The notes below the pieces were generated by a model. The model had not been told where the DNA came from, did no database searches, and saw only the letters and a program-made list of their open reading frames with translations. From Spirochaetia bacterium (GTDB lineage: Bacteria; Spirochaetota; Spirochaetia; UBA9216), in assembly GCA_963675665.1 (NCBI GenBank), contig OY776510.1:2944001-3008000 (forward strand): a DNA stretch of 64,000 bases, in the 5' to 3' direction. Both the position numbers and the translations under genes were made by a program. Positions 18,725-59,490 of this stretch are shown one piece after another. Position 1 is the stretch's first letter. Each line of letters opens with the position of its first letter.

Positions 18725-19903
18725 ATGGATAGAGTTTACCTTGATAATAATGCAACAACCCTGGTTGATCCCCTTGTAAAAGACGCGATGGACCCTTTTT
18801 TTACAAAAATGTACGGGAACCCCAATTCACTGCACAGTTTCGGCACCGAAATACATCCCTACATGAGTATTGCGCTTGACAGGTTGTACGATGGCATAAA
18901 TGCCGATGATAAGGATGATATATTCATTAACAGCTGCGCTTCCGAGGGAAATAATACAGTAATTAAGTCGCTTTATTTCGACAGTGTTCTTAACAGTAAA
19001 AAAAACCGGATGATCACATCTGCAATTGAGCACCCGGCTGTTTCTAATGTATATTTGTTTCTTGAAAAACTTGGTGTCGATGTGAAATGGCTCCCGGTTA
19101 ACAGCCAGGGAATTGTTGATCCTGCCGAATTGCGAAAAGCTATTGATCCGGATAAAACAGCGCTTGTGTCGCTTATCTGGGCAAATAATGAAACCGGCCT
19201 GATAAACCCGGTTAAAGAGTACGGTGAAATCTGCCGTGAGAACGGAGTAAAACTGCATCTTGACGGAGTTCAGGCTATCGGGAAAATTCCTGTCGATGTT
19301 CAGGATGTTGAAGTCGATTATCTGACCTTCAGCGCCCATAAGTTTCACGGCCCGAAAGGAGTAGGCGGTCTGTATGTCCGAAACGGCGCAGGCATAACTC
19401 CCCTGATCCACGGCGGCGAACAGATGAACGGAAAACGCGCAGGCACCATCAATACCGCTTTCATGATAGGTATGGGACTTGCGCTGGAACTTGCCGTTAA
19501 AAACCTTGATTATGAAGCCACCGAAGTCCGCAGACTGCGCGATAAACTTGAAGACGCCATTCTTGAAATTGATGATGTCGAGGTTATTGGAAGCCGTGAT
19601 ATCCGGACGCCCAATACAATCCTGGCAAGTTTCAGGGGTATTGAGGGTGAAGCTTTCCTCTGGGATCTGAACCAGAAAGGAATAGCAGCATCAACCGGAA
19701 GTGCCTGCTCGTCGGAATCGCTGGAATCAAATCCGACCTTCCAGGCAATGCAGATAGGCGCTGATCTGGCCCATACAGGTATGAGATTCAGCCTGTCGCG
19801 TTATACAACTGAAGAAGAAATTGATTATGCTGTCGATGTTATCAAAGGTGCAGTAGAAAGATTGCGGAGAATCTCATCGACGAGCAACAGGGAATATATC
19901 TGA
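18725..19903 (+). CDS. nifS: Cysteine desulfurase, NifS type
   Basis: YLDNNATT, IEHPAV, SAHKFHGPKG, STGSACSS. Confidence 0.95.
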   Translation: MDRVYLDNNATTLVDPLVKDAMDPFFTKMYGNPNSLHSFGTEIHPYMSIALDRLYDGINADDKDDIFINSCASEGNNTVIKSLYFDSVLNSKKNRMITSAIEHPAVSNVYLFLEKLGVDVKWLPVNSQGIVDPAELRKAIDPDKTALVSLIWANNETGLINPVKEYGEICRENGVKLHLDGVQAIGKIPVDVQDVEVDYLTFSAHKFHGPKGVGGLYVRNGAGITPLIHGGEQMNGKRAGTINTAFMIGMGLALELAVKNLDYEATEVRRLRDKLEDAILEIDDVEVIGSRDIRTPNTILASFRGIEGEAFLWDLNQKGIAASTGSACSSESLESNPTFQAMQIGADLAHTGMRFSLSRYTTEEEIDYAVDVIKGAVERLRRISSTSNREYI

Positions 19904-19988
19904 GTTGGAGTAATTTGGAAAGCGGAATTTTTCAAATTAAATTACAGTAAACCTGCAACCGTGCAGGAAGCTATATATTGGAGAAGTC

Positions 19989-20954
19989 ATGGCTAAAAAT
20001 GATTTAATCGGCGGAGCTTTATGGGAAAATTATTCCGATAAAGTCAGCGACAGAATGAACAACCCGCGGTTTATGGGTGAAATCTCCGAGGAAGAGGCTG
20101 AAGCGAAGGGCGCAAAACTGATAATTGCAGATTTCGGAGCTGATTCATGCGGAGATGCTGTAAGACTTTACTGGATGGTTGACCCTAAAACCGATATTAT
20201 AATTGATTCCAAATACAAGAGCTTCGGATGCGGAACAGCTATCGCATCAAGTGACATAACGGCTGAACTATGCATAGGCAAAACTGTCGATGAAGCGGTT
20301 AAAATTACCAATATAGATGTTGAAAAAGCATTGCGTGATACCCCCGACAAGCCGGCAGTTCCTCCCCAGAAAATGCACTGTTCGGTAATGGCTTACGATG
20401 TAATAAAAAAAGCAGCTTCATTATACAAACAGGTTGATATGTCGGTTTTTGAAGATGAGGAAATTGTTTGCGAATGTGCAAGGGTCTCCCTGAGCACGAT
20501 CAAGGAAGTTATAAAGCTTAATGATTTGAAAACCGTTGAAGAGATTACCCAGTACACCAAGGCGGGAGCTTTCTGCAAATCCTGCATTAAACCCGGCGGG
20601 CATGAAGAGAGAAAATTTTATCTTGAAGATATTCTTCGTGATACGCGTGCCGAAATGGAACGCGAAAGGCTTAATTTCAGCAGCGAAACACAGACCTTCA
20701 GCGAAATGACCCTGATTCAGAAACATAAAAAAGTGGACAAGGCGATAACCGAATCGATTCTGCCGATTCTGAATGCGGACGGCGGAAGCGTTGAAGTCGT
20801 GGATATGCAGGAAGTGGACGATTATACCGACGTATATATCAAATACAAGGGGGCTTGCGCGGGCTGTGCGGCAAGCAGAACCGGTACATATGAGGCAATC
20901 GCCGACACGCTGAGAAAGAAAGTCGACGAATCAATCAGGGTCCACATTCTCTAA
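19989..20954 (+). CDS. nifU: Fe-S scaffold NifU (IscU + Fer2_BFD + Nfu domains)
   Basis: CGD, FGCG, KMHCS; CEC...CKSC; C-terminal GACAGC. Confidence 0.95.
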   Translation: MAKNDLIGGALWENYSDKVSDRMNNPRFMGEISEEEAEAKGAKLIIADFGADSCGDAVRLYWMVDPKTDIIIDSKYKSFGCGTAIASSDITAELCIGKTVDEAVKITNIDVEKALRDTPDKPAVPPQKMHCSVMAYDVIKKAASLYKQVDMSVFEDEEIVCECARVSLSTIKEVIKLNDLKTVEEITQYTKAGAFCKSCIKPGGHEERKFYLEDILRDTRAEMERERLNFSSETQTFSEMTLIQKHKKVDKAITESILPILNADGGSVEVVDMQEVDDYTDVYIKYKGACAGCAASRTGTYEAIADTLRKKVDESIRVHIL

Positions 20955-20965
20955 ACACCCGGAGG

Positions 20966-21901
20966 GTGGAAATGAAAGCTCAGAATGTAACCGAACTGAT
21001 CGGAGGGACTCCTCTGGTCAGGCTTAACCGTATATGCGGTAATGCAGAAGTTTATGCAAAACTTGAATATTTCAATCCCGGAAGTTCGGTAAAAGACAGA
21101 ATAGCACTGGCTTTAATTGAAGACGGAGAAAAAAGCGGATTAATAAACAGTGAAACTATCATTGTCGAACCCACAAGCGGCAACACAGGTATAGGTCTTG
21201 CGATGGTGTGTGCCGTCAAAGGATACAGGCTGATACTGACTATGCCTGAAACCGTCAGCCCTGAGCGAAGGCAGATCCTTGCCGGATTCGGGGCGGAACT
21301 TGTTCTGGTGTCCGGGAAGGGGGGAATGACGCCTGCAATTGAAAGAGCCCGTGAGATTGCAGCTGAAAATCCGGACAGTTATATGCCGGGACAGTTCTCA
21401 AACCCCGCAAATCCCGCTGCGCATGAGTTTACAACGGCCCGTGAAATATGGGATGATACCGGCGGAAAGATAGATATACTGGTTTGCGGTGTCGGCACCG
21501 GAGGAACAGTCAGCGGTACTGCAAGAGGGCTGCGCCGGCTGAACCCTGATCTGAAGGTTATTGCAGTGGAACCCGCGGATTCACCCGTGATTACCCAGCA
21601 CTTGAACGGACAGAAGCCGGCACCAGGCAGCCATGTCATTCAGGGAATAGGCGCAGGTTTTATTCCTGAAAATCTTGATATTTCACTAATCAGTGAGGTA
21701 ATATTGGTCACAAATGCCGATGCCCTGGAATATGCCAGGCGTCTGATGAAGGAAGAAGGCATTTTCGCCGGAATATCAGCGGGGGCGGCGGCCCGGGCTG
21801 CAGTTGAGATTGCCTCGAAGCCCGAAAATAAAGGTAAAACGGTTGTTTTTGTTGTTCCTGATACCGGTGAAAGATATCTGTCGCAGAATATATTCAGCTG
21901 A
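20966..21901 (+). CDS. cysK: Cysteine synthase A
   Basis: SVKDRIA, TSGNTG, GVGTGGT, IQGIG, PDTGERYLS. Confidence 0.95.
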   Translation: MEMKAQNVTELIGGTPLVRLNRICGNAEVYAKLEYFNPGSSVKDRIALALIEDGEKSGLINSETIIVEPTSGNTGIGLAMVCAVKGYRLILTMPETVSPERRQILAGFGAELVLVSGKGGMTPAIERAREIAAENPDSYMPGQFSNPANPAAHEFTTAREIWDDTGGKIDILVCGVGTGGTVSGTARGLRRLNPDLKVIAVEPADSPVITQHLNGQKPAPGSHVIQGIGAGFIPENLDISLISEVILVTNADALEYARRLMKEEGIFAGISAGAAARAAVEIASKPENKGKTVVFVVPDTGERYLSQNIFS

Positions 21902-21919
21902 TTAATTTGGAGAGTAAGA

Positions 21920-22813
21920 ATGTCAGGTTTCAAAGAAGAATTCAATATCAAGGAAATAACGGAAGAACTGTGCAAATCTGAATCTTACAGCAAGGTTTAC
22001 CTCAGATCCAGCGAGCACGATATTCATATGCCGTCAATTGATGAACTTGCAAAAGCGGTTGAACTGCTGCGGTCGGTCATATTTCCCGGTTACTTCATCC
22101 ATTCGGAACTGCGCGAAGATACAATGCATTATTACATAGGGAGCAGTCTTGATAAATGTTTTGCAATACTTTCAGAGCAGTTGAAACGGGGATACTGTTT
22201 TGCGTGCTCTTCAGAGACGGTATGCAATTTCTGTGAAACCAGGGCTGAAGAAGCCGCAGCGCATCTGCTGAAACGACTTCCGTATATCAGACACATGCTG
22301 TCGACAGATGCCGAAGCCGCTTATGAGGGTGATCCTGCGGCAAAAAGTATAGGAGAGGCTATTTTCTGTTATCCAAGCATACGGGCCCTGACGAACCACC
22401 GAATTGCGCACGAACTTTATCGCTTCGGTGTTCCAATAATACCAAGGCTAATCAGCGAAATGGCTCATTCCGAAGCAGGAATTGATATTCATCCCGGGGC
22501 GGAAATCGACGAGCATTTTTTCATAGATCACGGTACAGGCACCGTAATAGGTGAAACTTCTGTTATCGGAAAAAATGTTCAGATTTACCAGGGCGTAACA
22601 CTCGGTGCGCGAAGTTTTCCCAAGGATGAAGACGGCAAACCAATCAAGGATATCCCGCGACACCCAATAGTAAAAGACGGCGTTATCATATATGCCGGAG
22701 CTACTGTGCTCGGTCGCGTAACTATCGGTGAAAATGCTATGATTGGCGGTAATGTCTGGATAACGCGCGATGTCCCTGCCGGCGAGAGGGTTATTCAGCG
22801 GCGGGCGGACTAA
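21920..22813 (+). CDS. cysE: Serine O-acetyltransferase
   Basis: GDPAA, GIDIHPGA, FIDHGTG, RHP, hexapeptide repeats. Confidence 0.93.
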   Translation: MSGFKEEFNIKEITEELCKSESYSKVYLRSSEHDIHMPSIDELAKAVELLRSVIFPGYFIHSELREDTMHYYIGSSLDKCFAILSEQLKRGYCFACSSETVCNFCETRAEEAAAHLLKRLPYIRHMLSTDAEAAYEGDPAAKSIGEAIFCYPSIRALTNHRIAHELYRFGVPIIPRLISEMAHSEAGIDIHPGAEIDEHFFIDHGTGTVIGETSVIGKNVQIYQGVTLGARSFPKDEDGKPIKDIPRHPIVKDGVIIYAGATVLGRVTIGENAMIGGNVWITRDVPAGERVIQRRAD

Positions 22814-23972
22814 CACCGACATCAGCTGCGGCTGAATATAATGCATCAAAAAAGAACTGAAACTCATGTTCGGTGATTATCAGCGGGGGATCGATCCGCA
22901 GAAATGAGCCCCTGTACCCGGTAAGAAATCCCTGATCAACAAGCTGTAAATATATCTTTTTTGTCAGCCCGGGATTGATAAACTCAATTGCATACATCAA
23001 CCCCCTGCCGCGGACCTGAGCAACAGCGTCAAGTTCCTCAAGACCTTCAAGTTTTTCCAGGAACAGCCTGCCGTTGATCTCTGCTTTTTCAATCAGGCAG
23101 TTTTCATTTATCACCCTGATTACCTCGCGCGCAACGGCGGCGCCCAGCGGATCATTCTGATGTGACTGGGCATATTTAAACGGACGACCCTCAAGTTCCA
23201 TGGTTATTCCGGCATTTAAGGCTGCAACACTGACGGGATAACCGTTGCCGATACCTTTCCCGATGGCAATCATGTCAGGTTCTATATCATAATGATTGTA
23301 TCCGAACCATTTGCCGGTTCTGCCTATTCCGGTAGTAACCTCGTTGACGATGATTTTTCCGCCGTTTTTTCTGACTTTGTCCGAAATGGTTTTAATTAAT
23401 GCTTTCGGGGGAAACCTGACAAAACCCGATGAACTTCCGGGTTCAAAAATAAAGTCTGAAATTCCGTCAGGGATATCACTGATTAAAGGACAATCTGCGC
23501 TGCATACATCAGCATTAACGCAATTTACACAGCCGGCCCAGTCAAAACAGTACCAGCCGGACTCTCTTCTTCCGACCGAAGAAAAGGCTCCGAGGTATGA
23601 ATCTTTCATTGTCATTGAAAGCGGTTTTCCGGTAAGATGGCGGGCAATCTGTCTTGATATCTCTATTGCTTCGCTTCCTGAGCACAGGAACACGGCTTTA
23701 CCGTCCGGCATCCCCGTCTTCTCCAGTACCGTTTCAGCGGCTTCCTCGACAATCCGGGTTGAATAACAAAAGCCGGCCTGTACAAGTGAACCGAGCTGGT
23801 TAATTATGGTTTGATTAATCTCTTTCCGCTGATGTCCGAGAGACATGCACCAGACTCCGGATTCAAGATCCATATAGTAATTGCCGGCCCGGTTTTTAAT
23901 GTATAGTCCGTTTCCTTCTGTTATGTCGGGTAAAAGAAGTTCATGCCCGCTGCAGTTAAAAACGTGTTTCAT
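22791..23972 (-). CDS. Class III PLP-dependent aminotransferase family protein (atypical NEV motif)
   Basis: SGSEA, EPG, NEVTTGIGRTG, IGKG, RGRGLM. The ATG at 23972 overlaps the MocR stop (ATGA). Confidence 0.85.
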   Translation of the reverse strand: MKHVFNCSGHELLLPDITEGNGLYIKNRAGNYYMDLESGVWCMSLGHQRKEINQTIINQLGSLVQAGFCYSTRIVEEAAETVLEKTGMPDGKAVFLCSGSEAIEISRQIARHLTGKPLSMTMKDSYLGAFSSVGRRESGWYCFDWAGCVNCVNADVCSADCPLISDIPDGISDFIFEPGSSSGFVRFPPKALIKTISDKVRKNGGKIIVNEVTTGIGRTGKWFGYNHYDIEPDMIAIGKGIGNGYPVSVAALNAGITMELEGRPFKYAQSHQNDPLGAAVAREVIRVINENCLIEKAEINGRLFLEKLEGLEELDAVAQVRGRGLMYAIEFINPGLTKKIYLQLVDQGFLTGYRGSFLRIDPPLIITEHEFQFFFDALYSAAADVGVSPPAAE

Positions 23973-25438
23973 ATGCAATTCTCCCTTATGGTTTCACTGA
24001 TTATTTTTATCCCCTGTTCAATCTCATCCGGAAGGGTTTTTGAGAGCGATATTCTGACGCAGATATTCCGGGACGGATCTTGAAAATATAAACTGCCGGG
24101 ACTTACAGCAACGCCTTTGCTAAGAAGCTCGGACAGAAACTGTTTTTCACTTATCGGCGGATTATCCCAATATACAAGAAAAGTATAGCCGCCCGAAGGT
24201 TTCGTATACCGGACGTAATCGAGTGATAAATACCGGCGGGCGGCTTTCATGGCGGCATTGATTCTTTCGCGGTACCTGGTGTGGACCTTTTTCAGAAAAT
24301 ATTCGAATTTCCCCTGTTTAAGAAAATCTGTCAGAGCCATCTGTATAAGGGGGTTTCCCGATAACCGGGTTACCCTTCTTATTTCCGCCAGCCTGTCTAT
24401 TAATTTCGGAGAGGCGGCAATCCATCCGGTTCTGAGTCCGGGGAACAGTATCTTTGAAAAAGTGCCGACATAGATAACAATGCCGCTGCTGTCCATTGAT
24501 TTTATCGGAAGTATTGTTTCTCCATGATACTTCAATTCTTCAAGAAAACCGTCCTCAAGAATCGGCACATTATACAGGCTGCATAACTCAAGGAGTTTTT
24601 CCCTGTTTTTCTGGCTGATCGACAGGCCCGAAGGGTTCTGAAAACTGGGCATTGTATAAAGAAGGGAACAGTTATTATTTTCGAGTATTTCCTCAAGTGC
24701 ATGAATGTTCATGCCGCTGTCCGTTAACGGGATCGGCGCTGTGGTGCCGCCGTTGCAGGCAACAAGGGACGGAAGATAACTGTAGGTGGGTTCCGAACAA
24801 ACGACAGTATCTCCCGGATGCAGCAGCGCCTTTAATACCAGGTCAATAGCATCCTGACTTCCGTTTGTAACAAGAATATTCTTTTCAGATATATAGATCT
24901 GGTGGCGGCCAAGATACTTGGAAAGCTCTTTTCTGAATTCCATGTTCCCCTTCGGATCTTCGTACGACATAGCCGTTTCCGGATCGCTTTGAAGTATTCT
25001 GTTAATGCTTTTTCTGAATTCTTCAACAGGCCAGTATGCGGGATCTGAAGACAGCGTCGTAAAATCGATCTTGCAGTTTTGCGGATACTGGATGCCGCCT
25101 GATGCCATTTTTTCGGACATTCTTTTATATGAAGGCGACAGTTTTTCATCCCAGTTGATCCCGGTTTCGTTTATATTTTTCGAACTGGTAATATCGGGAC
25201 GGTTTCTGATTCTTGAATAGCTTCCCGGTCTGCTCTCAATATAACCGAGGCTCCATAATTCTTCATATGCCTTGCATACAGTAGTTCTGTTTACTTCAAG
25301 GTGAACCGACAAAGCCCTGGTCGAAGGCAGGATATCACCGTCTTTAAGGGCCTGATTTTTAATCATTGATTCAATCTGTTTTGCGATCTGTTTATGTAAA
25401 GTGTCTTCGGATTTTCGATCTATAGTTACCAGAATCAT
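23969..25438 (-). CDS. MocR/GabR family regulator (GntR HTH + PLP domain)
   Basis: LPSTRAL..VNRTTV..AYEEL HTH, FQNPSG, GTFSKILFPGLRTGW. Start at ATG 25438 after CAGGAG. Confidence 0.92.
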   Translation of the reverse strand: MILVTIDRKSEDTLHKQIAKQIESMIKNQALKDGDILPSTRALSVHLEVNRTTVCKAYEELWSLGYIESRPGSYSRIRNRPDITSSKNINETGINWDEKLSPSYKRMSEKMASGGIQYPQNCKIDFTTLSSDPAYWPVEEFRKSINRILQSDPETAMSYEDPKGNMEFRKELSKYLGRHQIYISEKNILVTNGSQDAIDLVLKALLHPGDTVVCSEPTYSYLPSLVACNGGTTAPIPLTDSGMNIHALEEILENNNCSLLYTMPSFQNPSGLSISQKNREKLLELCSLYNVPILEDGFLEELKYHGETILPIKSMDSSGIVIYVGTFSKILFPGLRTGWIAASPKLIDRLAEIRRVTRLSGNPLIQMALTDFLKQGKFEYFLKKVHTRYRERINAAMKAARRYLSLDYVRYTKPSGGYTFLVYWDNPPISEKQFLSELLSKGVAVSPGSLYFQDPSRNICVRISLSKTLPDEIEQGIKIISETIRENCI

Positions 25439-25479
25439 TCTTCTCTCCTGATACTCAAAATAGCAGCAGAGCGGATGAT

Positions 25480-25520
25480 TGGCAACAGCCAAATATTGTC
25501 TGAATTGAACAGACCAATTA
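25480..25520. promoter_or_regulatory. Candidate MocR operator (direct plus inverted repeats)
   Basis: CAGCCAA...TTGTCTG-N7-CAGACCAA immediately upstream of the MocR gene, a MocR-type arrangement. Confidence 0.45.
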
Positions 25521-25530
25521 CCATAACCGC

Positions 25531-25561
25531 AAAAAAATAGGCTGCATTTTGAATGCAGCCC
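25531..25561 (-). terminator. Intrinsic terminator after the CysRS-like/VOC pair
   Basis: GGCTGCATT-loop-AATGCAGCC followed by a T-tract on the minus strand. Confidence 0.7.
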
Positions 25562-25602: not shown

Positions 25603-25968
25603 TCAGTCTACCTCGGATACCGTAAGAATATTTTTGTCGTGATCGTAGAATTTCAGCATGCGCATGCCCTGTTCCGAAAATTCAACAATATCGCCTTTAA
25701 GTGTTACCTCTTCAGCCAGCAGGTGTGCCTTGAATGAATCAAGATCTGCAACACCGAACGTCATAAACTCGTTTACCGGGTAGGGGGCATCCTGTTTCCA
25801 CTGATTTATTGCAATATAAGCATTTGTTACTCCGGGAACAGCCATTTCAACCCATCCGTCGGATTCAAAAGCCCGTTTGAACCCAAGAACCTTTTCGTAG
25901 AAAGTTTCGGTTTTCCTGATATCCCTTGACCATATGAAGGTTATTGAATGTTTATAATTAATACTCAT
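25603..25968 (-). CDS. VOC/glyoxalase family protein
   Basis: FYEKVLG, FGVADLD, FYDHDKNIL; 121 aa. Confidence 0.85.
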   Translation of the reverse strand: MSINYKHSITFIWSRDIRKTETFYEKVLGFKRAFESDGWVEMAVPGVTNAYIAINQWKQDAPYPVNEFMTFGVADLDSFKAHLLAEEVTLKGDIVEFSEQGMRMLKFYDHDKNILTVSEVD

Positions 25969-27231
25969 TTAGAACTCCTGTAAATTCATGTTTTTATGAG
26001 GGTAAATTACATTGAGAACATTGTCAATTTTTTCAAGATTTTTATTCAGTTTTTTTTGCTGTAAATCTGATAACGGCTGTGTTCCGCTCAGGTCGGAGAG
26101 TTTTTTTATGATTGAATGAACGGCATTAAAACCCTCTCCGAGAGAAAGGTCGTTGTCAAGTTCTTTCTCAAAGGCAGCCGGTATTCTGTCAATCAATAAG
26201 CCGGCCTGTGAATTGTCGTTTGTATTTCCGGAGCATATTGAAGAGATCAGGGATCTGAAATTCCTGATAATATCTGTACTTTGTTTAAAGGCTTTTTCCG
26301 TATAATTAAGCTTTTTACGGTAATGTTTATAGGTAAGAAAAAACCTGATGTCCCGCCAGTCGGCGCCGGATGCCGCGAGGGTTTCGGGATAAATGATATT
26401 CCCGCGGCTTTTGGACATTGTTTTACCGTCCACTATCAGATGGGCTCCGTGCATATAGTAATTGGCGTAATCTTTACCTGTAAAAGCCTCCATTACGGCG
26501 ATGTTGTAATCATGGTGACGGTAGATATTATCTATTCCGCCGCAGTTAATATCAATTTGATCACCGAGGCTCATTGCAACAATTGCCGGATCCTGAATGT
26601 TCCATGAAGGCCTGCCGCGTCCTATTGCAGTGTCCCAGTAAGGATGGTAGGGATCATTTTTATAATTATGCCAGAGTATGAAGTCTCCCATATTCCACCG
26701 GTTGCCGTTGTATGTGTCTTTTCTGAAATGTCTTTTTCTGTCGGGCCAGCGGTTCATATCCAGGCGGAACAGCTTTCCAAAATTATTTATTTTCAGGGGA
26801 TCGAAAAAATAATCCTCTTTATGTTCATAGACGATTTTTTTCTCAATAAGATTCTGAATTATTCGCACCGACTGATCTATGCTTTTGGTAGCCGGTATAA
26901 GATGATCGGGCATAATAAAACCGAACCCGTCCAGGCCTTCCCTGAAAATGGCCAGCACATCATCGGTCAGCGATTTTACATTCGTTTTTTTTCTTTTTGC
27001 TTCGTTTATGGCTTTGTCCTCAATATCGGTTAGGTTCATTGCCCTTTCGACATTGTAACCCTTGTAACGAAGGTATCTGACAAGAAGATCTTCATAGAGA
27101 AAAGTCCGGTAATTACCGATATGAGCTTTCTGATAAATCGATGGTCCGCAAGTGAATATTTTTACATTTTTCCCTTCGCGCGGCTTAAATATTTCGATGC
27201 TGCGTGACATGGTGTTGTATAACTTCAGCAA
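25969..27231 (-). CDS. Cysteinyl-tRNA synthetase paralog (altered active site, no anticodon domain)
   Basis: TCGP, HIGN, NLTDIEDK, DFILW and TMSKS are present. WHIEC is replaced by WNIQD and HHxNE by HHDYN. The protein ends after the DALR-like helical domain. Confidence 0.88.
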   Translation of the reverse strand: MLKLYNTMSRSIEIFKPREGKNVKIFTCGPSIYQKAHIGNYRTFLYEDLLVRYLRYKGYNVERAMNLTDIEDKAINEAKRKKTNVKSLTDDVLAIFREGLDGFGFIMPDHLIPATKSIDQSVRIIQNLIEKKIVYEHKEDYFFDPLKINNFGKLFRLDMNRWPDRKRHFRKDTYNGNRWNMGDFILWHNYKNDPYHPYWDTAIGRGRPSWNIQDPAIVAMSLGDQIDINCGGIDNIYRHHDYNIAVMEAFTGKDYANYYMHGAHLIVDGKTMSKSRGNIIYPETLAASGADWRDIRFFLTYKHYRKKLNYTEKAFKQSTDIIRNFRSLISSICSGNTNDNSQAGLLIDRIPAAFEKELDNDLSLGEGFNAVHSIIKKLSDLSGTQPLSDLQQKKLNKNLEKIDNVLNVIYPHKNMNLQEF

Positions 27232-27313
27232 TCCATACTCCTCTGTTATTATGAATATAAGCAGACTTGGGGAAAAAGTCGACTTAATTAGTTATTTAAT
27301 GTATATTAAAGCC

Positions 27314-27928
27314 ATGAGCAGAATAGACGTTCTGAAAAAACATTACGAACCAAGGCTTGAAAAATACAGGGATAATTCAAGGGTGCTGGACTGGGAAAGC
27401 CGGGATGCACAGTACAAACGTTTCAGAGCTCTTACGGATAACCTTGATCTCCGGGGAAAATCATTTCTGGATATAGGCTGCGGCTGCGGAGATTTCTTCG
27501 GACTGCTTGGTGAACTTGGAATTAAGGCTTTATATACCGGCGTGGATATCCTTGAAAAAATGATTGATCGCGCTGTTAAATGCTATCCCGAAGCTGATTT
27601 TTGCTGCGCTGATATCTTTGACAAGGATTTTTGTGCCGGAAAGCAGTTCGGATGTCCCGTATTCGATATTACCTACACGTCCGGAATATTCAATCTGAAT
27701 GCAGGCAATAATGAAAAATTCCTTAAAAAGGCGGTTCCGGTAATGGCCCGGCTTGCCGACGAAGCGTTTGCATTCAATCTGCTGGATCCTGCGTCGCCTG
27801 ATCGGGATGAAAGATACTTTTATTATGAACCTGAAAAAGCCTGCCGGCTTGCAGAACCGTATTCAAGCGGTATAAAAATTATTAAGGGATATCTGGCAAA
27901 CGATTATACTCTTATATGTATGAAGTGA
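27314..27928 (+). CDS. Class I SAM-dependent methyltransferase
   Basis: LDIGCGCG, YTGVD, SGIFN. Start moved to ATG 27314 because the ORF-track start overlaps the divergent gene. Confidence 0.88.
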   Translation: MSRIDVLKKHYEPRLEKYRDNSRVLDWESRDAQYKRFRALTDNLDLRGKSFLDIGCGCGDFFGLLGELGIKALYTGVDILEKMIDRAVKCYPEADFCCADIFDKDFCAGKQFGCPVFDITYTSGIFNLNAGNNEKFLKKAVPVMARLADEAFAFNLLDPASPDRDERYFYYEPEKACRLAEPYSSGIKIIKGYLANDYTLICMK

Positions 27929-29057: not shown

Positions 29058-29374
29058 CTCCTATAAGAAATTCCTGCATGGATGCAGGTATCTGAGGGTG
29101 TAGTTTGAAAAGATATTTTCAAACTACTAAATGATAAAATAACACGGATGTTATTTTATCATTCCTCCTATAAAACTTTCCGCCATGGAGGGCGGTTTCA
29201 TTACAGGAAGTTTGCATCAGCAAACTTCAAAATGATAAAATCACAAGGAAGTGATTTTATCATTCCTCCTGTAAAACTTTCCGCCATGGAGGGCGGTTTC
29301 ATTACAGGAAGTTTGCATCAGCAAACTTCAAAATGATAAAATCACAAGGAAGTGATTTTATCATTCCTCCTGTA
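29058..29374 (+). repeat. Tandem array of triple-hairpin units with CANGGANG loops (candidate structured RNA or REP-like element)
   Basis: Units 29165-29265 and 29266-29366 (101 bp, 1 mismatch), a diverged unit at 29058-29164, and a partial unit at 29367-29374. Confidence 0.9.
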
Positions 29375-29427: not shown

Positions 29428-29883
29428 ATGATTCCTGAAGATGTACGTGAATTTCTGGATAGACATAAACTGGAAGCTGTTGAGTTTGAAGAAGGCAGTA
29501 CGCCGACCGCAGAAACTGCAGCTATGAAACTGGAAGTAAAAACCGGTCAGATTGCAAAATCAATACTGCTCAAGGCAAAAAAAGGCAATTTCTGTCTTGT
29601 TGTCTGCGCAGGCGACAAAAGAATAGATTCAAAAAAGGCGAAGGAGCTGATCGGATCAAAAATCAGGATGGCGAATGCGGAAGAACTCTATGATATTCTG
29701 GGTTTTAAACCCGGAGAAGTTTGTCCGTTCCGCAATTCCGATATTCCGTATTTTATTGATGAAAGTCTCTCTGTTTACGATACTGTCTACCCTGCAGCAG
29801 GAACTGATTCGTCAGGTGTCCCTGTGGCGTATGACAAGCTTATAGAAATTACCGGTGCGGGAGTATGCGATATAACTGGCTGA
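29428..29883 (+). CDS. YbaK/EbsC family aminoacyl-tRNA deacylase
   Basis: TPTAETAA, QIAKSIL, G..PGEVCPF, YPAAG. Confidence 0.88.
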   Translation: MIPEDVREFLDRHKLEAVEFEEGSTPTAETAAMKLEVKTGQIAKSILLKAKKGNFCLVVCAGDKRIDSKKAKELIGSKIRMANAEELYDILGFKPGEVCPFRNSDIPYFIDESLSVYDTVYPAAGTDSSGVPVAYDKLIEITGAGVCDITG

Positions 29884-58074: not shown

Positions 58075-59490
58075 GTGAACATAAACTTATATAACACTCT
58101 TGGCAGAGAGCTGCAGGAATTCAAGCCGATTAATGAAAAAGAGGTCGGCCTGTACTGTTGCGGGCCTACCGTTTATAACTATGCGCATATCGGAAATCTG
58201 AGAACATACGTATTTGAAGACTTGCTTAGAAGGGTATTGGAATACGCCGGTTACAATGTAAACCATGTAATGAATGTGACGGACGTCGGCCATCTGACCG
58301 GCGATCAGGACGACGGAGAAGACAAACTTGAAAAGAGCGCCCGTGAAACAGGCAAATCTCCGACGGAGATAGCAGAATTTTATACCGATGCTTTTTTCAG
58401 GGATATCGACAGGCTTAATATCATCAGACCGAAAACAGCCTGTGTTGCTACAAAACACATCGGCAATATGATAGGACTTATAAAAAGGCTTGAAGCCGGC
58501 GGATTTACATATATTGAAGGCGGAAACGTATATTTCGACACTGAAAAATTTGCCGGATACGGTGAGCTTGCGCTTCTTGATCGGCAGAAGCTTAAAGCCG
58601 GGGCCAGAATTGCCGTTGACGGAAATAAAAAGAACCCTGCCGATTTTGTTCTCTGGTTTACCAAATCAAAGTTTGAAAATCATATAATGCAGTGGGATTC
58701 TCCCTGGGGTACGGGCTATCCGGGGTGGCATATAGAATGCTCGGCTATGAGCATGAAGTATCTCGGCGAGCAATTCGACATTCACTGCGGCGGAATTGAT
58801 CATATACCAATTCATCATACAAACGAGATAGCACAGTCTGAGGCCGCTACCGGCAGGAAATGGGTTAACTACTGGATTCATGGTGAATTTCTTCTGATGG
58901 ACAAGCAGAAAATGGCAAAATCCGCCGGTAATTTTCTTACGCTCCAGACCCTGGTAGACAAGGGATATGATCCTCTCGATTACAGGTATTTCTGCCTGGG
59001 AGGTCATTACCGATCACAGCTTGTTTTTAATTTTGAATCGCTTGATGCCGCCCGGAATGCGCGAAGAAATCTGGTTGAAAGAATTGAAGAGCTGAAATCA
59101 TTCGCTGAGCCTGCTCATGCAGATAGTCTTGGCGAAAGGGCCGGGGGTATAATCAACCGTTTCAATGAAAGCCTTATAAACGATCTTAATGCGCCCAGGG
59201 CCCTTGCCGAATTATGGCAATTGCTCAAGGACAACGATATATCGCCCGAAGATAAACTTGGCGCTGCAATTGAGATGGATCGGGTATTCGGCCTGCAGCT
59301 GTCTGAAATAGAAGCTCCGGCAGCCGAATTGTCGGATGCGGAAATATCAATAATTCGGGATCGTGAACAGGCAAGGGCCGATAAAAACTGGGGAAAAGCC
59401 GACGAACTGAGGGATAAACTGCTGTCTTTGGGTATTGAAATAAAGGATACTTCAGACGGAACACAATGGAAAAAGAGAGGTAACCGTTAA
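58075..59490 (+). CDS. cysS: Cysteinyl-tRNA synthetase (canonical)
   Basis: [30 protein letters not shown], and the anticodon domain R..AR..K.W..AD.LR. Confidence 0.97.

Follow-up and report, generated by a model that had tools for sequence, protein, structure and literature searches.

We analysed a stretch of 64,000 nucleotides from a Spirochaetia bacterium (contig OY776510.1, positions 2,944,001 to 3,008,000; hereafter the window, whose own coordinates are used throughout). Its minus strand holds, at 25969..27231, a gene for a paralog of cysteinyl-tRNA synthetase (CysRS) that differs from CysRS at seven positions of the amino-acid pocket and has no recognisable CysS_C domain. Judged from sequence comparisons, the gene belongs to an old, conserved and so far undescribed family of CysRS-derived paralogs. 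The canonical cysS gene of the same genome served as comparator, and the features of the two genes are as follows.

25969..27231, minus strand: CysRS-like paralog, 420 residues, TTG start; class I Rossmann core, connective-peptide (CP) domain, stem-contact (SC) fold and helix bundle, no CysS_C
27148..27150, minus strand: codon of Cys28, the retained zinc-ligand equivalent, within FTCGPSIY
27112..27123, minus strand: HIGN (HIGH signature), residues 37-40; H37, G39 and N40 invariant (100%) across the family
26686..26769, minus strand: residues 155-182 in the CP domain, a stretch bearing a basic motif peculiar to the family (W162-P163 insertion, R/K-rich, NGNRWN)
26590..26604, minus strand: WNIQD, residues 210-214, equivalent to E. 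coli W205-H206-I207-E208-C209 by motif position and alignments
26503..26517, minus strand: HHDYN, residues 239-243, equivalent to E. coli H234-H235-E236-N237-E238 by motif position and alignment
26407..26421, minus strand: TMSKS loop, residues 271-275; second Lys kept, first Lys variable
27254..27282, minus strand: weak sigma-70-like promoter match (9/12) 5' of the TTG start; a consensus match only, with 8 matches against 5.4 expected by chance
58075..59490, plus strand: canonical cysS, 471 residues; tRNA-synt_1e at E=1.5e-98, CysS_C at residues 418-465

The paralog and the canonical cysS product share 34% identity. In their pairwise alignment FTCGPSIY and HIGN are kept, the paralog segment GRPSWNIQDPAI and DINCGG stand against a counterpart with DIHCGG, and HHDYNIAV lies opposite HHTNEIAQ (motif starts at 26604 for WNIQD, 26517 for HHDYNI and 26421 for TMSKS in the paralog, and at 58726 for WHIEC and 58813 for HHTNEI in cysS). 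An alignment to E. coli CysRS (1li5), with which the paralog shares its numbering as far as residue 103 and runs ahead by +5 near the pocket, places N211 at H206, Q213 at E208, D214 at C209, N229 at H224, H239 at H234, N243 at E238 and C28 at C28. The changes relative to CysRS are hence H206N, E208Q, C209D, H224N, P233R, N237Y and E238N, with TMSKS in place of KMSKS. Residues C28, C209, H234 and E238 are those that we take, after Newberry et al. 2002, to be the zinc ligands of the E. coli enzyme. Both alignments bear out the rewiring of the pocket (WNIQD, DINCGG, HHDYN) that the original prediction had read by eye; its description of HIGN and TMSKS as intact holds for HIGN and the MSK core but not for the first lysine of KMSKS, which is a threonine here.

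Pfam tRNA-synt_1e (PF01406) matches residues 15-318 of the paralog with E=1.1e-69, and the CysRS model TIGR00435 covers model positions 1-402 of 466 with 294.5 bits, below its cut-off of 340; the model for MshC, the mycothiol Cys:GlcN-Ins ligase (TIGR03447), reaches 193.3 bits against a cut-off of 485.1. The absence of an anticodon domain, also claimed originally, proved to be half right: CysS_C (PF23493), found at residues 418-465 of the canonical protein, gives no match in the paralog at E≤0.01, but four C-terminal helices (residues 312-406) form a helix bundle in the AlphaFold model (pLDDT 89, pTM 0.89). Such a bundle is presented, in the part of AARS Online that deals with it, as the anticodon-binding superfamily shared by CysRS and its relatives (PMC11580382). 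As modelled, then, the paralog is missing only the CysRS-specific C-terminal module and keeps the helix-bundle part of the anticodon-binding region. Foldseek comparison of the model with CysRS structures gave template-modelling (TM) scores of 0.82-0.86 (best 8qhp, 0.86), so that the modelled fold is confidently that of CysRS. Against full-length tRNA-bound E. coli CysRS (1u0b_B) the query and target scores (TMq and TMt) were 0.84 and 0.77, and scores against MshC were slightly lower than against CysRS, at 0.79-0.80. The isoelectric point (pI) is 9.15 for the paralog and 5.5 for the canonical protein. By NCBIfam score, by its set of ligands (the zinc ligands being those assumed above) and by domain content, the paralog is not a CysRS.

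To define the family we combined protein and genome searches. Among the best 120 database proteins (49-97% identity, mostly 400-447 residues), P[SA]WNIQD is present in 109 and HHDY in 118, and those that carry a name are called 'class I tRNA ligase family protein' or 'cysteinyl-tRNA synthetase' and come from metagenome-assembled genomes (MAGs) of Spirochaetes. An exhaustive search of representatives at 50% identity returned a handful of family members at 347-396 bits, followed by a fall to about 275 bits, where ordinary CysRS begins; the ESM Atlas holds a Spirochaetota cluster of 190 members. The 120 proteins were the top matches of a word-indexed search that scored 8000 candidates, of which 5230 passed E≤1e-10. 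We also scanned one genome per species (185,579 species) with the family-specific peptides [IV]DINCGGI and DNIYRHHD, which gave 181 pattern matches, 111 confirmed relatives and finally 80 loci that were kept. By their record names, 66 of these are of Spirochaetota type and 14 are Desulfobacterota or delta-proteobacterial.

Pocket columns were counted in an alignment made without any motif filter, which comprises 75 family rows, 104 full-length non-family rows and 14 other short forms. This matters because the canonical rows of a second set, used for signature conservation, had been picked with the regular expressions WHxEC and HH..E, which makes invariance at those columns circular. The motif-unfiltered counts, in E. 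coli numbering, are given first for the 75 family rows and then for the 104 full-length non-family rows.

Cys28: C 74; C 104
His206: N 73; H 104
Glu208: Q 73; E 104
Cys209: D 73; C 97, D 7
His224: N 53, A 8, others; H 103
Pro233: R 74; P 98
His234: H 74; H 104
Asn237: Y 74; N 86
Glu238: N 70, T 4, S 1; E 104
Lys269 (paralog K274): K 74; K 104

The Trp205 equivalent is kept in at least 73 of the 75 family rows. Conservation of 97-100% extends to G29, P30, Y33, H37, G39, N40, R42, D48, T68, D69, D72 and K73, and likewise to W187, W210 (the Trp205 equivalent), G231-G232-D234, H239-H240, H261, M272-S273-K274, N278, R296 and Y304-R305. These residues are the parts of a class I active site that handle ATP and the alpha-amino-acid backbone. 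The first position of KMSKS, by comparison, varies (K 26, T 20, P 13, S 12). Outside the pocket the family has fixed Y to F at 26, 142 and 151, T31S, K188H and the W162-P163 insertion, whose two residues are conserved at 98% or more in the family and face gaps in at least 98% of canonical rows. The insertion sits in a basic, near-invariant CP segment, …RWPxxKxRFKRDTYNGNRWNxGDFILWH. Compared with canonical CysRS at similar divergence, the CP domain is the part of the family protein whose relative conservation is raised most (identity 0.63 versus 0.52 overall, against 0.42 versus 0.41 in canonical CysRS). In absolute terms, identity peaks (0.74) in the C-terminal half of the Rossmann fold, which holds the KMSKS loop, and the helix bundle is constrained in equal proportion in both groups (0.26 against 0.52 overall in the family, 0.21 against 0.41 in canonical CysRS). 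Median pI is 8.9 in the family (n=68, range 5.5-9.8) versus 6.1 in full-length CysRS (n=84).

The ratio of nonsynonymous to synonymous substitution rates (dN/dS) was estimated by the Nei-Gojobori method for 11 pairs, three of which, including both window pairs, were saturated at synonymous sites. The eight pairs with a finite value gave 0.061-0.298, and six of these had dS<1 (0.088-0.298). The gene is hence under purifying selection and the substitutions are not peculiar to this genome, as the 111 genome relatives attest; near-invariance of the pocket across a family that spans 43-97% identity argues, as had been proposed, that the changes were selected and are not the product of decay.

The family forms one clade in both trees that we built. 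In the FastTree tree (193 rows, 75 of them family) its support is 100; in the IQ-TREE tree, computed under the LG+C20 mixture from 67 rows (27 family, 9 other short forms and 31 full-length proteins, 28 of these random draws), its Shimodaira-Hasegawa-like approximate likelihood-ratio (SH-aLRT) support is 100 and it stands on a long stem. The canonical cysS of the window sits among ordinary full-length CysRS in both trees, and therefore the paralogy is old. In FastTree the canonical-pocket, 411-residue protein P0132 adjoins the family with support 93; in the mixture tree it does not stand beside the family, and the other short forms make up a clade of their own inside the canonical radiation. 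Because the two trees differ on the sister group, we make no claim on the lineage of origin. Two contigs of one MAG record set (L069 and L075) carry one family member each, at 46% and 48% identity to the query, and some genomes may thus hold two family copies. A search of proteins of 736-2100 residues for fused forms of the family found none, its three matches at 33-37% identity all being canonical-type fusions.

No description of a WNIQD/HHDYN/DINCGG family, or of a matching CysRS-like or truncated paralog, was found in the open-access literature searched. In the passages of a 2022 review of synthetase duplication that concern CysRS paralogs, the only functions named are MshC and CysRS*, both of which use cysteine (PMC9437257); passages of a 2010 survey by Aravind and colleagues discuss MshC and MetRS paralogs and do not mention the WNIQD/HHDYN family there (PMC2922099).

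We favour, with moderate confidence, the reading that the enzyme is an ATP-dependent ligase that adenylates an amino acid with new side-chain or metal chemistry, and that its substrate is most likely not cysteine. The parts needed for adenylation are kept (HIGN, the MSK lysine, GGxD, Gly29, Thr68/Asp69 and Trp205), so that the protein would bind ATP and an alpha-amino-acid backbone and make an aminoacyl-adenylate. The cysteine-selecting zinc site, on the other hand, has been rebuilt, two of its four ligands being swapped (Cys209 to Asp and Glu238 to Asn) along with neighbouring residues that are otherwise invariant. Since the lost His206, Glu208 and Glu238 are invariant in 104/104 full-length relatives, selection would no longer proceed by the canonical zinc-thiolate mechanism. 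The retention of Thr68, Gly29 and Trp205 points to a side chain that is probably cysteine-sized with a polar gamma atom. A small alpha-amino acid would be adenylated, with altered side-chain or metal chemistry; as a guess only, a beta-substituted alanine such as Ser or 2,3-diaminopropionate (Dap) could be the substrate.

The activated amino acid would then be passed to an acceptor that is recognised without an anticodon, through the unusually conserved basic CP domain. We lean slightly towards a polyanionic macromolecule such as GluQ-RS and CysRS* use (the acceptor end of a tRNA or another RNA), and less towards a small molecule of the kind that MshC uses. What hints at RNA or another polyanion is the basic pI, the constraint on the CP domain, a helix bundle that is held as tightly, in relative terms, as in canonical CysRS, and the fact that the neighbourhoods of the family are scattered and of housekeeping type. 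Truncated synthetase paralogs that have no anticodon domain, still adenylate and serve a new acceptor offer a likeness: EpmA/PoxA aminoacylates a protein. GluQ-RS (YadB), as treated in part of the duplication review, keeps adenylation and uses a tRNA base as its new acceptor (PMC9437257). Both differ from the present family in their parents, which are GluRS for GluQ-RS and class II LysRS for EpmA/PoxA, and not CysRS. Within CysRS itself, the section of Mukai et al. on the D. tiedjei enzyme places recognition of the first acceptor-stem base pair in CP1, around residues 164-167 (PMC5389517); we infer, from approximate numbering, that the W-P insertion of the family falls in the same CP1 segment. 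It is possible, if somewhat unlikely, that this enzyme of anaerobic spirochaetes and sulfate reducers puts a small non-cysteine, possibly non-proteinogenic amino acid on RNA or, alternatively, on protein, with no reading of the anticodon. The RNA acceptor could then be a tRNA acceptor end or, as with GluQ-RS, a modified base.

Several observations weigh against this proposal. ARAGORN, run on the window and the 80 family loci, found no tRNA gene adjacent to the paralog; tRNA genes occur in only three of the 80 loci, none adjacent (tRNA-Gly in L049, tRNA-Met in L066 and L068). Rfam, which covered the window and 17 of the 80 loci, found no element near the gene, its matches being three TD-2 motifs elsewhere in the window and one tRNA. 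The pI and the domain conservation are indirect evidence of the acceptor. A small-molecule acceptor is suggested by the precedent of MshC and by co-directional VOC, ABC-2 exporter, rpe/glmS (sugar-metabolism) or aldolase genes, found in different single clades. Because Cys28 and His234 remain, a metal is probably still bound, and thiolates can be bound by zinc held by Cys, Asp and His, the ligand set of protein farnesyltransferase. Finally, Asp209, which had been taken as a mark of new specificity and is indeed found in 73/75 family rows, also occurs in 7/104 full-length CysRS-type proteins that keep Glu238. A stronger argument than Asp209 alone is the combined change of His206, Glu208, Glu238, His224, Pro233 and Asn237. 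Both the non-cysteine substrate and the small-molecule ligase of the original prediction are inferences from sequence.

Since a Cys/Asp/His zinc site could bind a thiolate, continued use of cysteine is the main rival to the adenylation of another amino acid. The protein would then have re-tuned its zinc site to three ligands (Cys/Asp/His) and would still activate cysteine or some other amino acid with a thiol or selenol group, either as an MshC-like ligase that makes a low-molecular-weight thiol or as a CysRS*-like enzyme that serves a special tRNA. We regard this as unlikely. It would explain why Cys28, His234 and Trp205 are kept in at least 73 of 75 rows, and it is favoured by the seven full-length proteins in which Asp209 stands beside an otherwise canonical pocket. 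It leaves unexplained the loss of His206, Glu208 and Glu238, which all 104 other full-length proteins, and most other short forms too, have kept. In the clade of the window, cysE-cysK-nifU-nifS and genes for a Nit-family amidase, a YbaK-like deacylase and the VOC protein are found nearby, but these cysteine-related neighbours accompany one clade only (6-8 of 81 loci). Both precedents lack the anticodon domain, according to passages of two sources (PMC9437257, PMC5389517), but the MshC model scores far below its cut-off, and neither selC*/selB*-like neighbours in the family loci nor the PTVS motif in the family proteins were found.

Each precedent was also compared with the family in its own right. 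MshC is CysRS-derived, has about 410 residues and no C-terminal anticodon domain. It uses cysteine and keeps the zinc cysteines. The family differs in its altered pocket, in its score (193 bits versus a cut-off of 485) and in its hosts, which are Spirochaetota and Desulfobacterota and not Actinomycetota. MshC is tRNA-independent, as stated in part of one report (PMC5370406). Score, host and pocket rule out identity with MshC. CysRS* was described in Desulfobacterales (Mukai et al. 2016/2017), an order that also holds members of the present family; in the portion of that work devoted to it, its gene lies 3' of selC*-selB* and its CP1 carries PTVS (PMC5389517). No tRNA is adjacent in the 80 loci, no EF-Tu/SelB-type neighbour occurs among the 34 annotated recurrent clusters, and the family proteins have, in place of PTVS, the W-P insertion and the basic motif in that segment. 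In the two features compared, gene context and PTVS, the family is not CysRS*. From canonical CysRS (TIGR00435, PF01406), with which it shares the fold (TM 0.82-0.86), HIGH/MSK, Thr68, Trp205, Cys28, His234, the CP domain, the SC fold and the helix bundle, the family is set apart by the seven pocket changes, the CP insertion, the missing CysS_C, the basic pI and a sub-cut-off score.

The original model coupled the CysRS-like enzyme to the product of the adjacent VOC gene, and the features of the window that bear on it are these.

25603..25968, minus strand: VOC gene (glyoxalase/bleomycin-resistance fold), 121 residues, immediately 3' of the paralog; Pfam Glyoxalase 35.1 bits against a cut-off of 20.6
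25975..25979, minus strand: AGGAG, a Shine-Dalgarno-like sequence that would serve the VOC gene, lying within the last codons of the CysRS-like open reading frame (ORF); read from the sequence
25529..25561, minus strand: intrinsic-terminator-like hairpin and T-run, about 40 nucleotides past the VOC stop; 10-bp stem at 25561-25539 with 5 GC pairs
27314..27928, plus strand: divergent class I S-adenosylmethionine (SAM) methyltransferase; Pfam Methyltransf_25/11, ATG start at 27314 inferred

The TAA of the CysRS-like gene (25971-25969) directly touches the VOC ATG (25968). Abutting stop and start, a Shine-Dalgarno sequence before the VOC start and a single terminator after both genes make a two-gene transcript well supported, so that, on the evidence of the sequence, the paralog and the VOC gene are probably co-transcribed in the window lineage. 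The predicted two-gene unit with its terminator is thus supported at this locus.

To see how far this arrangement extends, we called 1092 ORFs in 81 sources (the 80 kept loci and the window region) and clustered them. The target gene was recovered in 70 of the 81 and missed in L019, L033, L037, L039, L046, L056, L058, L059, L062, L073 and L075. A phmmer search of these ORFs with the window VOC protein found a homolog in eight sources (L001-L004, L006, L008, L035 and the window), that is, in the window's own clade plus L035. In all eight the VOC gene lies immediately 3' on the same strand (the next gene in 8 of the 70 recovered targets), with gaps of 2-34 nucleotides in the six relatives with clean ORF calls; in the other 73 no homolog was found within 8 kb. 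The VOC gene has hence been added in one clade and does not belong to the core system, and the coupling fails as a general feature of the family. Closest PDB matches of the VOC protein are weak (PluN2, an N-demethylindolmycin synthase, E=2e-4; the glyoxalase/bleomycin-resistance protein 4hc5, E=5e-4), and NCBIfam gives only marginal matches to bleomycin-binding proteins (E about 0.002). In seven aligned VOC proteins, the positions of the metal-binding His/Glu quartet of glyoxalase I-type enzymes vary in part (H 5 and N 2 at position 7; E, Q or S at the C-terminal Glu position) and E41 is invariant; the product may bind a ligand without being a metalloenzyme. A small-molecule pathway with the CysRS-like enzyme and the VOC protein as its two obligate components would account for the tight linkage in the clade, but with the VOC gene missing from 73/81 loci and its metal positions variable, we consider such a pathway distinctly doubtful.

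The rest of the neighbourhood is no more constant, and the gene-context check suggested originally gave a negative answer, as no partner is conserved family-wide in the 81 loci. The window-clade group also has cysE, cysK, nifU and nifS (7-8 loci each) and a Nit-family hydrolase, a YbaK-like gene and a 427-residue protein (6 loci each). No neighbour persists more widely than the divergent SAM methyltransferase, present in 11/81 sources (the extra ones being L036, L049 and L057). In other clades the family gene is followed directly by an ABC ATPase and an ABC-2 permease (9 loci), preceded by MORN-glmS-rpe (5 loci) or by OsmC-hydrolase, HPF and CorC (3 loci), or flanked by an aldo-keto reductase and a class II aldolase (2-3 loci); elsewhere it adjoins a dihydroorotate (DHO)-dehydrogenase-like gene (10 loci) or clpS (3 loci).

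This lack of a conserved partner or pathway context, together with the variable first lysine of KMSKS, would fit a pseudo-synthetase that has lost catalysis and serves a structural or regulatory purpose. Such a role is very improbable, given the 97-100% conservation of HIGN, of the MSK lysine, of GGxD and of Thr68/Asp69, and given that the KMSKS-bearing half of the Rossmann fold is the most conserved segment and that the gene is under purifying selection. Hardly credible is a zinc-sparing back-up CysRS for zinc limitation: two zinc ligands have been swapped for harder O/N ligands, and passages of Haas et al. 2009 describe Zur-regulated proteobacterial CysS paralogs that likewise stand beside the housekeeping enzyme, but those paralogs retain the zinc-binding residues and sit with COG0523, znu or zur genes (PMC2770081), whereas the family has lost CysS_C, keeps Cys28 and His234 invariant and has no zinc-homeostasis gene among its annotated recurrent neighbours. 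The features of the Zur-type paralogs and the neighbourhoods of the family rule it out as the principal explanation.

If the enzyme does adenylate an amino acid other than cysteine, evolution would have remade the zinc-thiolate selectivity filter of CysRS itself and kept the new version unchanged in two phyla. Its substrate and acceptor could reveal a new metabolite, a new RNA or protein modification, or a new way to tune a synthetase pocket, and the family is a natural template for the engineering of CysRS-fold enzymes. Were RNA or protein the acceptor, it would represent a previously unknown modification route that reads no anticodon.

Further genes surround the locus. The longest ORF of the methyltransferase (27152-27928, plus strand, GTG start) would overlap the 5' end of the paralog by 80 nucleotides; the ATG at 27314 is the likelier start because homologs have about 205-212 residues, and it would leave a divergent promoter region of about 80 nucleotides. 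A nifS-nifU-cysK-cysE operon (18725-22813, plus strand; TIGR03403 at 600 bits, TIGR02000, TIGR01139 at 417 bits, plus a cysE/EpsC-like gene) is convergent to the CysRS-like/VOC unit, an arrangement kept in the window's own clade only (7-8/81 loci). Between the VOC gene and cysE lie genes for a regulator of MocR type, which reaches 331.7 bits with the PdxR model (cut-off 320), and for a class III aminotransferase (22791-25492, minus strand). Relatives lack the pair at that position, homologs being found in 1/81 sources (the window) for the aminotransferase and 3/81 for MocR, and it looks like an insertion specific to the window genome. A PADLOC search for defence systems gave no match for the CysRS-like, VOC or Nit proteins and a weak mad2 match for the methyltransferase. 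Directly 5' of the YbaK/EbsC-like deacylase gene (29428-29883), three TD-2 RNA motifs (RF03162; 55-56.5 bits, gathering threshold 48.7) follow each other in tandem (29072-29369, plus strand), as a 101-nucleotide repeat array of 2.5 copies with 95% matches; eight related loci gave no TD-2 match.

CysRS-like proteins outside the family show variation of their own. The proteins with Asp209 and a retained Glu form a WHIED/HHE[A/C]E clade, mostly full-length (P0151, P0193, P0201, P0234, P0253, P0257 and P0260), in which position 237 is often Cys. The 14 other short forms mostly keep the canonical pocket set, with exceptions. Short lineages without CysS_C, of about 405-413 residues (P0167, P0263, P0232, P0132, P0141 and P0145), group together in the IQ-TREE tree as a separate clade (SH-aLRT 95), and some of their pockets are partly rewired (N206/Q208/C209/T238 in P0167, L208/D209/I238 in P0263, G238 in P0232); short CysRS paralogs may thus have acquired new functions on several occasions. 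The ESM Atlas also contains CysRS-like clusters of about 400 residues in Chloroflexota, Mycoplasmatota and Bathyarchaeota. In P0130 (768 residues) and P0181 (783 residues), a PALP (CysK-like) domain is fused to a complete CysRS including CysS_C, so that one chain carries both cysteine synthesis and tRNA charging.

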